64,000 bases of DNA from Paraspadella gotoi. Lineage: Eukaryota > Animalia > Chaetognatha. A program made the position numbers and the translations under genes. How positions within the stretch are numbered: position 1 is the stretch's first letter; the number at the start of each line of letters is the position of its first letter. Positions 14,408 to 29,330 of the stretch are shown here, in pieces. Where the stretch lies: NCBI GenBank assembly GCA_051294375.1, contig CM119268.1:14151240-14215239 (forward strand), read 5' to 3'. Under the pieces are notes generated by a model. It was not told the DNA's origin, ran no database searches, and saw only the letters and a program-made list of their open reading frames with translations.

Positions 14408-17400
14408 TTAACGTAACTTCGTTTCTTGACAAAGTTTTGCGATCAGACAGACATTCTGGGCGAGTTGACCAGGAGATTGGGAAGGCGGACAGATATTCGA
14501 TCCGAGACCCAAAACGCGATGTTCTTTTGTTGGTCGAAAAAATAGAGTTAATAATGTAATAAATGATAAAAATAAAAAAGTAAAAAAATAAATCAATAAG
14601 TTTAGATGATATAAATTACAACAGTAACAACAAAATAAATAACTGCTACTTCAGCCTATTTGTAAAAGGAAGGAACTACAACAACAACCACAACGACGAC
14701 GACAACCTCCTCGTAGTAGGAACTTTCGTTGATGAAGATGGGATACGTGGATCTGGATCCTTTGAAGGGAATCACTTCTCCGTCGGCCCTGAGGAAAGCC
14801 GGCTGACCTGGGTCCAACTTGCAGAAATCTCGGTCCTGCATCCGGACAAATAATTATTTAAAAGCTTGTTAAAAATTAATAATAATTATTGGCGGAGACA
14901 GAAAGAGACATTTATCCACCACAAAACGTGAAATTTTCACGTTAGTTTTTTAATAAAAATCTTTCTCTTCTGGATTTTTTTATATAAATATTTTTATCTT
15001 TATTTTTATATTTTTATTTTGTAATCCAGTTAATCTTTATCTCGGACAAAAAACGTTAAAAACGTTTCACCTGCAATTCCGGATGAATCATGACGTCTTT
15101 ATCCCAAGCGTCAATCAACCGACTCTTCTTGATCGGATATGGGATCTTCATCGAGGGCAAGAAGACCTTGACGAGGTCCCCCGCCGACCGCTCCACGTCG
15201 TTGAGACTCTCCAAGAAATCTAGCGACATCTTGACGGCGAGTCTGAGACGCTCGACGACGTCTGCTCTGACGACGCCGTGGGGCTCGGAGCCGACGTCGA
15301 CCGAGAGACCGAAGTTGTTCGGCATGACGATGTGGTGCGGCTCTTCCGAAGACTCGAAGGCGACCACGCGAAGAGGAAGAGGAGGGGAACACTTTTGGAC
15401 GGAATCCTGAGAGGGAATTGGGGAAATTGTGGCAGCACTTGTTGAATGTTGAATGTCCTCAGCCTCGTCTCAATGGCTGAGCAGGCTAAATCATCTCGTT
15501 ACAACCGTGAGTCCCGGGTTCAAATCCCTTGGTATCCCGGTTCTGGCTTAAATGTGACGGAGCCAGTGACAGGAGGAGGTCACTGAGGGTCCACAGCCCC
15601 TACGCCAGTTGGTGAGATACCCCGCGCCCCGGGAATCACAGGCATTCCTCCCGTAGCCATAAAATGGGCTTTACCTTTTTCTGCTGATCAATCCGTCTCT
15701 TTATCTTTTGTCTGTCTGTTTGTTTTCTGTCTCATAGGCTCTATGCCTGTTTTTTGTCTCTCTGTCTATTAGTTTTTTATCCCTATCTGTCCGACTGTCC
15801 ATCAGACTGCCACTCTATCTCTGTCACTCTATGACTGTATCTCATATCTGTGTCTCAGTCACCCGCAAATGCTGCGCAACGTGAAAGGCGAGCCAGCATT
15901 TTCGATTTCTTCTCAACCAATTCTCCACGTCTTCCGAGTTTCGTCGAGTGTAGAACCTGAGAAAATGACTCAACTCTTTCGGAAATGTCACATCTGGGCC
16001 GGAGACAAACCGATAGTCACAGGGAGTCACGTAATGAAAGAACTTCTAAAAGTTTAAGTTTAAGAAATAATACAGATCAAGCTTTAAACTCAAGTTGACC
16101 CTGCCAACAGGCTTTACTAATTTTCATCTCCTCGATCAAATCAAATTAAATCAAATCTGTTTAAAGAATCGGCCAATGTCGAAGCTAATTGTCAAGCCCA
16201 CTCCTTTCCACCCCCCCGCCCCTCGACTCTGGCTCAACGACTGACATGATGACGACGACGATTCCAACGTTCGACGTCGTCGAGTGAAGATCGATGAGGA
16301 AGTCCGTGTTTCCGTTTCCGTACTTTTGGTGAATCTCCGACGCGCGCTGCCTCTCGTACGAATGCGGACCGGACTCTAGACGTTGGACAAAGACGCTCAC
16401 CGTTCATTGTGGTCTGTGGACGATTTTAAAAGGCTACGGGCTTACAGCAGATTCCGGCTCGATAATTCACTTTGTCGATAATCATATAAATAAAATATAT
16501 AAATAAATAATAATACAAATAATCAAATAATTCTTTAATCAATTAATCAATTAATTATTCAATCTAACCATCAATTAATTATTCCATCAATTAATCGATC
16601 AATTAATCGTTGTCGGTGTTTTCGTCGTCGTGGCCATTATCGTCGTCTTTTGCTTTTGTCGTGGTCAGTGATGGAAAAAAAAAAACCAAGTTTGAGCAAG
16701 CAATGTCGGATCTTATTAAAAAAATTAATTAATTAAATCGCTAATGAGCGTGGGCGGATCCGGAATTTTTTTGCACAAACATGTTTTTGGAGCTTCTGGA
16801 CACAAAGCCAAATCTACCCAAAAATGGCACGAAGAAAACGGGATCGAGGTGCTCAAAGGTTGGCCCAAAAAACTTGCCAAACAGCATCAAAAAAGTCTGG
16901 TCAACGACGAAGAGGGAGATTTTGCAGTACAACGCCAGTCGACGAAATAAAGAGAATCGTAAAACGCGTTTATATTTGCGCAGGCTCTACGACTCTCTCC
17001 CTTTTCCTATGGAATCAGTGCTGGAAGGAAGCAAATGGTGGGCCGACAAAGTATTAAGCACTGAGTTTCATAAATGTTTTGGTTTCCTTCAAAAAGTGAA
17101 ATAAAATGCTTTTATCATAACTATTAAACTTTTTTTGTACACATGGATACGATGATTCGTCGTTTCATGCAGAATTACGTCATAATCGGTAAATATCCTG
17201 ATATTTAAAATAATTAATCAATCAAATTATATTTGACTCGTAACAGACGCGAACACAGTTTGAAAGCTTCATCATAACTGACCTTCCCGCTTACTCACCC
17301 GACAATGGTTGAGGGTCTTTCTGAAAAGCTCGATTGAGGTCATCGTCGATGAGACGGCGACACGTTTGGACGGCCTTGGGATTACCGATCTCCACGAAGA

Positions 17401-17557
17401 CGTCGAGAGTTCGACGCTGCAGCTCCAACGCCCCTTCAGGCGTCGACCAGTAGCGTGTTAAAAAGACGCCGCTCAGTTCGTTGCCGTGGATGCCTCCCAT
17501 GATGAGGACGCGCTTAACGGGCTGAATGTCCACGCTCTCTTCAGAGTTCTCGGACAT
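14408..17557 (-). CDS. Aspartoacylase / aminoacylase-3 family (M14-like Zn hydrolase), 331 aa
   Basis: 6 phase-consistent GT-AG exons: 17299-17557, 16246-16375, 15863-15956, 15071-15406, 14707-14835, 14408-14455 (996 nt). Motifs GGIHGNELSG, GNPKAV..RRLIDDDLNRAF, DFLIDLHSTTSN, VDVGSEPHGVVRAD, IHPELQDRDF, YPIFINESSYYE match ASPA/ACY3. Confidence 0.95.
15456..15665 (+). mobile_element. tRNA-head + degenerate twister element (family copy 1), antisense in aspartoacylase intron 3
   Basis: A-box TGGCTGAGCAGG 15474-15485 and B-box GGTTCAAATCC 15517-15527. Then TGG-cttaaatg-TGA-cgga-GC, P3 cagtgac/gtcactg, P4 AGG-GT-CCA-CAGC-C-CCT (15586-15601). Confidence 0.75.
16744..17057 (+). mobile_element. Tc1/mariner transposase C-terminal remnant (frameshifted) in aspartoacylase intron 1
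   Basis: Across three frames: GASGHKAKSTQKWHEENGIEVLKGWP / NSIKKVWSTTKREI..LRRLYDSLP / EANGGPTKY*. This matches the Tc1 DDE-domain end (H.A....W......vl.WP..SPDLNPIE.lW..lK....lv.Smp.R...v..a.Gg.TkY). Confidence 0.8.
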
Positions 17558-18164
17558 CTCGGGGCGTTGGTGTGGAATGGATTGACCGTGACCGGAGCGG
17601 ATTCGCGACTGAAGACTGGAGTGGCTTGGCCAAGACTGGAGCGGAATTGTGACTGGAGTGGCAGATCAGATCTGTTCTGATAGGTTGGGTCAAATACGGT
17701 CGTCTTAAATCTTTATTAATCCTCTCTTTTTCTTCTGATTTTTGTTCGAAGACAGAGTAGAGAGATGAAATAAGGCGTTGAAGCTCAATTAAGAATTCAA
17801 TTTTAAAAAAAAAGTTAAATACCCAGTATAACCTTTGTTTATCATTGATCTGTATTTCTCATTTTCTGCAAATTAAACCTTTTATTCACTTGGTTTGCTC
17901 TAAATTCCCAGTTAATCTTGCATTGGAAACGAAACTAAAGAATTTTAAGAACCTACCTTTCAAAACCTAGAAAATCTTCGTCTTCAACTACAAGTTCGCT
18001 TTATATTACTAATTTTATCTATTGTTCTACGATTCACTTTGCCGGTCCGACGGTCCCACCCCAAAATCTTGTCGGTAAGTCACTTAGATGATGTCAGAAC
18101 ATCGAATTATGATAAATTATACCCAAAAAATCGATGTCCGTCCGTCTGTCTGTCCGTCCATCAT

Positions 18165-28157: not shown

Positions 28158-28749
28158 ATGTTTGATAAGGAAATTTCGTCCGATGAAATTACATAAAATT
28201 CTGGTTAATAGTTACGTCGATCCCAGAACAAAGATACTTCATTGAAGAATTGAGAAATAACGAATGGTTACATTAATTTTTCGTACAAAACCAAACGAAA
28301 AAAAACAACATTAAAATGTAATGTCGCTCCTTCAATTCGTGTTTTTCTCTTTCGTCTTTTTTCCTTTCGAATCCCAAGAAATTTATTTTTTTTCCTAAGA
28401 AAACAAGTTTTTTCTCACTTTTTGGATTTTTTTTTATATAAAGAAAAACTCCGTGTTTTTTCTCCCTTTTTTTTTTGCTGAAGAGGTTTTTTATTCCAGC
28501 GATTTGACTTGGAAGAGAGACTAGAGAGAGAGAGAGAGAGAGAGAGAAAGAGAGAGAGAGAGAGAGAGAGAGAGACTGTTTAAGACCAAAGAAAGAAATA
28601 AAAAGAAAGAAAAAAAATATAAAAAAGGGGATAGAAGCCCCGGTTTCTTCGATTCCATTTTCAAAATCCCCTTTGATTCTATTTTAACACCAAAGAAAAA
28701 CATTTGATTGACTTCGTCGTTTTGAATTAAAGGATCTCAAGATTTTTTC

Positions 28750-29330
28750 GGAGTCGTGGCGCGGGTTACTCGTTCCGCCACTCGAGGTCGCGGCCCTAAA
28801 GGGGATGACGTTACCGATTATGTCGCCATCGGCGCAATCGCGCTGGTTTCCAGCTTTGGGCCTTAGGGCGTCCTTGACTTGTAGTCGGGCATTGCCTAGG
28901 TTCACCCCGCCTCTAAGCATGACACCTTCAGTCCCGGTGGCTCATTGAGTAAAGCCATCAGCTCATGACCACTAGGTACCGGGTTCAATCCCAACCCGGT
29001 ACCTACCCTGTGGGAAGCGTGAGGACGGCCGTAAGTCGCCTTGGGGGCGTGGCAACCCCTCAAGCCTGGTTCCAAGCCCAGGACCCGTTCCATGGCTACT
29101 AAAGGGGGTTATAGAAGTTACGGATAGTCATCTTCAGCCCACTTAGCGCCTTATCCACAGACTAAGTGAACGGAATCCTTCACGTAGGGATGGCACTGTG
29201 TGGTGCTGGGCTACCAGTTTTACTAGATGAAGTAGGTGGTCAACTGTCAAAATCGCACAACCACCCTTCCTTGACTCCACCCTCTCGGCCCATATTGCCT
29301 CACCCTCCCACTCGCCAACACTCACCTTCC
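28750..29330 (+). mobile_element. tRNA-head/twister element plus an upstream partial tandem unit (best-preserved family locus)
   Basis: A-box-like TGGCTCATTGA 28938-48, B-box GGTTCAATCCC 28982-92, twister 29008-29095. Spacer words ctaaagggg..gttac.gat..gtc (28796 / 29099) and tccttgact..attgcct..caccttc (28871 / 29268) each occur twice. Confidence 0.75.
29008..29095 (+). ncRNA. Twister ribozyme, type P5 permutation with palindromic mini-P1
   Basis: P5 ctgtggga/ttccatgg; GA-GGA (29021-25); P1 CGGCCG; UAA (29032-34; predicted cut U^A); gtc; GC; P3 cttggggg/ccctcaag; P4 cctg/cagg around L4 GU-UCC-AAGC-C. T1 UCC:GGA. Confidence 0.8.

Follow-up and report, generated by a model that had tools for sequence, protein, structure and literature searches.

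What kind of mobile element carries tRNA-type promoter boxes in front of a self-cleaving type of RNA fold, and by which route might it multiply in an animal genome? This question is raised by a 64-kb stretch of DNA from the chaetognath Paraspadella gotoi (assembly GCA_051294375.1, contig CM119268.1, positions 14,151,240 to 14,215,239; hereafter the window, numbered from its first letter). A preliminary description of this DNA had proposed a single family of tRNA-headed repeats, either short interspersed elements (SINEs) or tandem retrozymes without long terminal repeats (LTRs), bearing type-P5 twister ribozymes at four loci. A type-P5 twister-like fold downstream of A and B boxes, in high-copy non-coding retroelement-like repeats, is borne out here; the class of element is not. 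Element D, at 28880-29159, is read instead as the solo LTR of a Helenus-like non-autonomous LTR retrotransposon, whose RNA polymerase III (Pol III) transcript would be cut by the twister once in each LTR and circularised, much as in plant LTR retrozymes. We put the probability of this reading at roughly 0.6.

The remaining elements are designated A (15.5 kb), B (18.3 kb) and C1 and C2 (26.5-27.1 kb), D itself lying at 29.0 kb, and E denotes an additional family. Contigs from four of nine listed sequencing runs of DNA type (three studies) were mapped onto positions 26300-29600. Background depth was taken from flanking bins in runs X1, X4 and X5, and depth ratios express relative abundance, not true copy number. 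For this reason, and because the best run, X1, is possibly the window's own sample, abundance is claimed only as thousands-fold.

A repeat with LTR-type ends

D is a plus-strand unit of 280 bp that begins with TGT and ends with ACA, and an exact direct repeat of 4 bp lies on either side of it (28876-28879 and 29160-29163). Its boundaries are defined independently by loose contig ends: at the 3' end (29159), 110, 102 and 79 contigs from X1, X4 and X5, respectively, diverge into unrelated flanks, and at the 5' end (28880) 52 contigs do so in X5, this position not being among those listed for the other runs. These read-defined ends coincide exactly with TGT, ACA and the 4-bp repeat. The combination is unique in the window, as no other among 55,634 pairs of ends spaced 280 bp apart shows TG and CA together with an exact repeat of 4 bp. 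The extent first assigned to the element, 28750-29330, was too wide. Summed depth over D is about 9,000-21,000 times background, as a ratio and not a copy number.

Inside the unit, positions 28938-28992 of the plus strand hold two tRNA-type promoter boxes, an A box at 28938 and a B box at 28982. This region folds strongly (28925-29008, z = -6.1) into two hairpins, not a cloverleaf, and ARAGORN found no tRNA gene in the window. The box words TGGCT and GGTTC are present in both D and A, and the two B boxes reported earlier, at 28982 and 15517, are confirmed. The A box of D is preceded by 58 family-wide bases, and the B box is followed by 167 bases that include the twister-like core; there is no A-rich or simple-repeat tail, and no run of four T occurs inside D on its plus strand.

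Together, the ends, the duplication and the thousands-fold depth point to a solo LTR. Ginger-type DNA transposons share TGT...ACA ends and a 4-bp duplication, and they carry long terminal inverted repeats; a search for such repeats in D found none, with end-anchored matches at only 6 of 20, 7 of 40 and 14 of 60 positions, and this assignment was rejected. tRNA-derived SINEs have the head at the 5' terminus, an A-rich or simple-repeat tail and a longer target duplication. Because D has two fixed ends, TG...CA termini, a duplication of only 4 bp, a 58-base lead before the A box and no tail, it is read as a solo LTR and not as the SINE or tandem non-LTR retrozyme originally envisaged.

A twister-like core in type-P5 order

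The core of D spans 29008-29095 on the plus strand. Its outer parts are P5 (29008-29015 with 29088-29095), GA at 29021, T1 (29023-29025 with 29071-29073) and a palindromic P1 (29026-29031); the inner parts are UAA at 29032-29034, a P2 strand of 3 nt, T2 (29038-29039 with 29076-29077), P3 (29040-29064) and P4 (29065-29069 with 29078-29082). Cleavage is predicted at U^A, between 29032 and 29033. The P5-type order and the position of UAA agree with the preliminary description, and the full order, P2'-GA-T1'-P1-UAA-P2-T2-P3-P4/L4 closed by P5, is present in D, in C1 and in two copies of family E (E1 and E2), not in A or C2.

To gauge chance, a strict pattern was used that demands the invariant twister core in P5 order and leaves P2, P5 and palindromes free; it was written after the loci had been seen. 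It matched the window five times, against a mean of 0.395 in 200 dinucleotide shuffles (maximum 3; none of the 200 reached 5). Four of the five matches lie inside repeats (D, C1, E1 and E2) and the other is a low-complexity site. When these four elements were each shuffled 2000 times, the pattern arose in 1, 0, 0 and 0 shuffles, respectively, and an earlier, looser pattern had given two top-score matches where 0.1 were expected. An Rfam scan of the whole window (E<=1) returned 45 matches, mostly microsatellite noise and none to twister; on short stretches, Twister-P5 (RF02684) was selected in E1 (23.6 bits, 27462-27504, minus strand), E2 (17.9 bits, 5935-5976) and D (15.5 bits, 29043-29081, a partial match). 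As the gathering score of this family is 37.6 bits, the Rfam check proposed earlier yields sub-threshold matches only, and the core is classed as a twister-like variant and not as a member of RF02684. No hammerhead family was matched in either the whole-window scan or those on short stretches. Beyond the window, a motif that the cores of D and E share had 22 matches in a metagenome scan, none of them with a downstream L4 by eye and all chance-like, and the full core pattern had no match among viral contigs.

A twister-like core is real at 26.7 kb, 29.0 kb, 27.5 kb (minus strand) and 5.9 kb. Of the four loci for which a core had been claimed, those at 26.7 and 29.0 kb have an intact one that can be scored; A lacks the cleavage loop, B is gapped by N and C2 has decayed. 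The E cores, at 27501-27462 (minus strand) and in its copy at 5938-5976, were absent from that account.

Pairing within the core is best seen in its pseudoknots. T1 forms three of three Watson-Crick pairs in D (TCC:GGA), C1 (CGG:CCG) and E1 (CCA:TGG), hence in three versions, and two Watson-Crick pairs plus one wobble in E2. T2 forms both its pairs in all four copies, in two versions, GC:GC (D and C1) and AC:GU (E). The T1 versions at 29.0 and 26.7 kb had been correctly recognised; CCA:TGG had been placed at 15.6 kb, in A, where the TGG at 15544 does not follow GA and is part of the P5 stem. The covariation noted earlier in P3 holds, with seven of seven pairs in A and seven of seven in C2. P4 has five of five pairs in D, and the P5 stem has eight pairs in D (three of them wobbles), eight of eight Watson-Crick pairs in C1, eight of eight in E1 and five pairs in E2. 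Both pseudoknots covary between families that are no longer alignable elsewhere, while the GA, UAA and L4 bases are invariant; MAFFT alignment did not bring the cores into register. P2 is weak in all copies and pairs at two of four positions in the window copy of C1. At one P2 position of D and two of C1, more than 97% of contig depth carries other letters, which pair better. Published Schistosoma mansoni twisters have four P2 pairs (PMC8501958).

Several families with one layout

Alignment shows homology among A, C1 and C2 (z 7-20; C1 with C2, 20; A with C2, 15). The scores of A with B (4.8) and of A with D (4.2) are weak, and those of D with C1 or C2 are below 1. Because D fails to align with C1 and C2, sequence comparison resolves the single family of the preliminary description into several families with one layout. 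The distance from the TG start to the core GA is 113-141 bases in all five headed copies, and the starts of A and B are placed from this likeness only.

Element A (15428-15690, plus strand, ends uncertain) has boxes at 15474 and 15517 and remnants of P5, P3 and L4. It has no strict-core match: GA at 15556 is followed by CGG, which makes two of three T1 pairs, and then directly by T2. Having neither P1 nor UAA nor P2, A cannot form an intact ribozyme. A candidate 4-bp duplication around A (15408/15690) was rejected: chance alone yields such a pair in 3-11% of random stretches of equal size, and its left repeat, like the purine run, falls on the splice acceptor belonging to a host exon on the minus strand. 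The host is an aspartoacylase-like gene with exons at 15056-15407 and 17294-17665 on the minus strand, the latter matching Pfam AstE_AspA_cat (E 6.5e-17). The intron separating these exons holds A in antisense orientation, adjoining the splice acceptor, and B is found some 540 bases upstream of the exon at 17294-17665.

Element B (18206-18375, plus strand) starts with TGTAG after a purine run resembling a polypurine tract, and it retains decayed boxes and, of the core, its 5' half with GA at 18338 and UAA at 18349. An N gap at 18376 interrupts it before P4 and L4, so its core cannot be scored.

C1 (26521-26755, plus strand, 3' end undefined) starts with TGT, where contigs show a joint at 26520, and has an A box at 26574 and a B box near 26608 that is degenerate, as it is in B. 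Its core (26644-26753), a strict match, comprises GA at 26657, a palindromic P1 core at 26662-26669, UAA at 26670 and L4 at 26703-26712. Summed depth over 26522-26743 is about 3,000-17,000 times background, again a ratio and not a copy number. C2 (26874-27105, plus strand), which is related to C1 and A and has decayed, runs colinear with C1 from its TG start onwards and has no strict-core match; its core is degenerate, T1 being reduced to one Watson-Crick pair, one wobble and one mismatch, and its depth is mostly near background.

C1 and C2 stand head to tail, 353 bases apart. The tandem array seen here in the preliminary description consists of two units of about 69% identity, separated by a spacer in which no clear primer-binding site or polypurine tract can be recognised, the only primer-site-like word there being a non-canonical CA-T-TGG at 26790. 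C1, spacer and C2 were also considered as one intact terminal-repeat retrotransposon in miniature (TRIM); the 69% identity, the unequal depth and the lack of a purine tract before C2 do not support this. A repeat matching at five of six positions around 26521-27081 was not accepted as a target duplication. A, B, C1 and C2 probably represent LTRs, either older or damaged, from related families that share this layout. The tRNA-like heads of A and C1 fold strongly, as that of D does (15455-15545, z = -3.1; 26555-26640, z = -3.4), and in both of them a cc(t)tcag word is base-paired to the word of the A box.

A possibly Penelope-like family with much the same core

Family E has no tRNA head that could be seen. 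E1 (27402-27778, minus strand) is a 312-bp unit with a 5'-truncated upstream copy in partial tandem; its compact type-P5 core (27516-27452) gives the best Rfam match. E2 (5808-6020, plus strand; core 5925-5984) is 5'-truncated and ends at its 3' side as E1 does. Tail fragments lie at approximately 31700-31764 (minus strand) and 55780-55831 (plus strand). The 3' end is fixed about 60 bases past the core and common to three of the four fragments, the 5' ends being truncated, and the spacing within the core is almost identical to that of D. Depth over E is about 17,000-32,000 times background (a ratio, not a copy number). A reading of E as an LTR element is not supported, there being no duplication around the second copy and the fragments being 5'-truncated. 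On sequence features, E looks like a Penelope-type element with a twister in place of the hammerhead; no autonomous partner with a reverse transcriptase or GIY-YIG domain was seen in the window.

A decayed E copy (26371-26520, minus strand; z 16 to the second copy) with a deletion across the ribozyme core abuts the start of C1, and its right edge carries a word that we take to resemble a Met-tRNA primer site. One X4 contig joins the 3' end of D (29159) to the interior of E (27601), as expected if D is inserted into E elsewhere in the genome.

Comparison with known systems

The closest layouts in the literature are those of animal Helenus TRIMs and plant LTR retrozymes. Helenus TRIMs (TRIMp3; Kojima 2024, PMC10886601) have tRNA-like A and B boxes within TG...CA LTRs, 4-bp duplications, as D has, Gypsy-like primer sites, solo LTRs and high copy number, and Pol III transcription and dependence on Gypsy are proposed for them as they are here. 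They differ in that no ribozyme is described, the word 'twister' having no occurrence in the text searched (PMC10886601), and in that the tRNA part lies near the 3' end of the LTR and is followed by a short tail in nearly all of the LTRs examined by eye. Five L4 words had no exact match in the Helenus supplement file, in which line breaks can hide matches. In the LTR of the ctenophore Helenus-1_MLe the tRNA part is likewise 5' and followed by a long 3' part, and about 21 bases of C2 (27076-27096) resemble a stretch of it by eye.

Plant LTR retrozymes (Cervera et al. 2016, PMC4918200) have ribozyme-bearing LTRs of 300-400 bp, 4-bp duplications and many solo LTRs. They share with D a self-cleaving-type motif in the LTR, the 4-bp duplication, the lack of coding sequence and a model in which a circle regenerates the LTRs, which for D is a prediction. 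The motif is a type III hammerhead there and a type-P5 twister-like core here, the host a plant there and an animal here; tRNA-type boxes are found only here, whereas circles, primer-binding sites and polypurine tracts are demonstrated only there (PMC4918200). As a twister-like core replaces the hammerhead, D may be said to work like an LTR retrozyme and to resemble Helenus, and on present tests it is a member of neither. A 2026 preprint still describes LTR retrozymes as primarily of plants and hammerhead-bearing.

The core has GA-T1', UAA, T2, the GU-NNN-AA loop and P4, arranged in P5 order, in common with Twister type P5 (RF02684). An association of twisters with retrotransposons is known from the 5' ends of long interspersed elements (LINEs) of the RTE type, as in the Schistosoma Perere-3 T-variants (Liu et al. 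2021, PMC8501958). In those variants the twister is 5'-terminal in an autonomous RTE LINE and its P1 is completed by the target site, whereas here the core is internal and a P5 stem closes it; the P2 strand of D and E is 3 nt long, and P1, of 5-8 nt, is often palindromic. Schistosome Sm-alpha elements likewise combine a Pol III promoter with a ribozyme, which is a hammerhead, and they have no LTRs (PMC6765202). In its end pattern, a fixed 3' end (three of four fragments) with 5' truncation and partial tandem arrangement, E resembles Penelope pseudo-LTRs and metazoan non-LTR retrozymes (PMC7229834, bioRxiv 10.64898/2026.07.22.740005); those are hammerhead-bearing, non-LTR elements, unlike D with its LTR-type ends and E with its twister-like core. 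A twister-bearing LTR, TRIM, SINE or Penelope element was not found in the full-text literature, a body that leaves out most subscription papers, and the original twister sequence lists or Repbase could already hold one that has not been read in this way; within that scope, the outcome agrees with the preliminary description, which knew of no account of the combination.

A proposed replication cycle and its alternatives

The reading of D as a solo LTR of the kind outlined above is based on its termini and their 4-bp duplication, on the promoter boxes, on pseudoknots that covary and on the high depth, and the purine run immediately 5' of the TG start of B supports it. In the proposed cycle, Pol III transcription would begin in the 5' LTR, immediately ahead of its A box, and, because D has no four-T run on its plus strand, could read through the element. 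The twister would then cut at U^A, its cut site elsewhere (PMC8501958), in both LTRs and release a unit-length RNA with a 5'-OH and a 2',3'-cyclic phosphate, which would retain the promoter boxes of the 3' LTR and have no terminal redundancy. This RNA could be closed by a host ligase of the RtcB type; in vitro, RtcB turns monomers of hammerhead retrozymes into circles (PMC7229834). Enzymes of the Gypsy type, a reverse transcriptase and an integrase, might copy the circle past one round and insert the product with a 4-bp duplication, and solo LTRs would arise by recombination or from short cDNAs.

Several observations weigh against this reading. LTR-type ends are established for D only, and within the window there is neither a two-LTR copy with primer-binding site and polypurine tract nor a clear trace of either in the C1-C2 spacer. 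The A box of D is without the YGG of the Helenus A box, a T5 run lies near the end of A and a T4 run just past C1. As for the ribozyme, every Twister-P5 score, from 15.5 to 23.6 bits, is under the cut-off; in D and E the 3-nt P2 strand after UAA makes three pairs only with a one-base bulge; and P1 is not palindromic in B, C2 and the window copy of E1. Finally, the GA-T1 strand of D is held in a competing helix in the minimum-energy fold, which equals shuffled sequences in stability (z 0.04), although this fold recovers P3 and P4 and comes from folding programs that cannot model pseudoknots.

Some of these points would be accommodated if D were an ordinary Helenus-like LTR replicating through linear RNA, with the twister-like segment a captured and inactive relic or a non-catalytic structure. 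The short P2, the sub-threshold scores and the competing fold fit that explanation, as does A, which has lost its cleavage loop and is nonetheless an inserted copy. Against it stand the covariation of T1 and T2 across families that do not align elsewhere, with GA, UAA and L4 unchanged, and the majority read letters, which pair better than the window copies; we regard this account as unlikely. D could also be the solo LTR of an autonomous Gypsy-type retrotransposon whose own LTR holds the boxes and the fold: TG...CA ends and the 4-bp duplication fit this equally well, and no internal region that would discriminate was seen. Pol III boxes, however, suit short transcripts, and autonomous partners must, according to Kojima, use Pol II (PMC10886601); moreover, the 14 of 93 long open reading frames that were scanned yielded no reverse-transcriptase or integrase family, which says little for a window of 64 kb. 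An autonomous origin is likewise rated improbable.

The preliminary idea of a tRNA-headed SINE or a tandem non-LTR retrozyme like Sm-alpha, cut from multimers and inserted by LINE or Penelope machinery, draws on the boxes upstream of the ribozyme, the head-to-tail order of C1 and C2, the hammerhead precedent of Sm-alpha (PMC6765202) and the headless, Penelope-like E family with the same core. It is at odds with the 58-base lead, the missing tail, the fixed TG...CA ends and the mere 4-bp duplication of D, and with the low identity and very unequal depth of C1 and C2, and it appears rather improbable. That the twister likeness is a product of chance in G+C-rich, hairpin-forming repeats is very unlikely indeed: no Rfam match reaches the gathering threshold, one of the five strict matches is plainly fortuitous and the pattern was post hoc, but no window shuffle equalled the observed count, at most 1 in 2000 shuffles of an element matched, and Rfam picked Twister-P5 independently at three sites.

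If the solo-LTR reading of D is correct, the element would join Pol III-boxed TRIMs such as Helenus, in which no ribozyme is described, with LTR retrozymes, which are mainly from plants and bear only hammerheads. Circle-based LTR retrotransposition would then not be bound to one ribozyme class or kingdom. Twister, besides its place at RTE 5' ends, would gain another role among retroelements, and the elements would provide natural type-P5 variants, short in P2 and palindromic in P1, that current Rfam models miss. A P5 stem is reported in about 1% of annotated twisters (PMC6154101).

Palindromic P1 and possible dimers

The P1 core is self-complementary in three of the six window copies (D, C1 and E2), and in E1 too by the read majority. 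The chance of a palindrome for a 6-mer with a closing pair is 6.9%, and the cores here count as two independent ones. Predicted P1 self-duplexes have energies of -10.7, -11.0 and -8.3 kcal/mol, against +4 to +6 kcal/mol for a hairpin of one pair. From these models it is conceivable, and we suggest it tentatively at somewhat less than even odds, that the palindrome allows strand exchange between two ribozymes, which would then cleave as a dimer. Penelope and axolotl hammerheads need dimers and have a palindromic minimal stem (PMC7229834, bioRxiv 10.64898/2026.07.22.740005), and a twister acting as a dimer would parallel the dimeric Penelope hammerheads. Since P1 of twisters is reported to be dispensable or merely rate-enhancing, monomers may also cleave.

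A fuller picture, doubtful as a whole, would be that of an animal twister LTR retrozyme in the form of a Pol III-driven TRIM, in which cutting by dimers through the palindromic P1 restricts circularisation to two-LTR transcripts. The cassette would be shared with a Penelope-type family as a module exchangeable between LTR and non-LTR elements, present in tens of thousands of copies and built on the rarest twister permutation.

Other features of the window

The window has the features of an animal genome, with introns, microsatellites, an aspartoacylase-like exon and a tyrosine-kinase exon. The protein tyrosine kinase exons lie at 11524-12119 on the minus strand (Pfam PK_Tyr_Ser-Thr, E 3.6e-14; Src-like by eye). 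Local duplications of 96-97% identity pair 1-1784 with 8430-10213 and 2130-2513 with 7911-8297, and degenerate tandem repeats with units of about 100-140 bp occupy 56550-57760. At 31136-31145 a palindromic B-box-like word reads on both strands, with an A-box-like word upstream of it on the minus strand.

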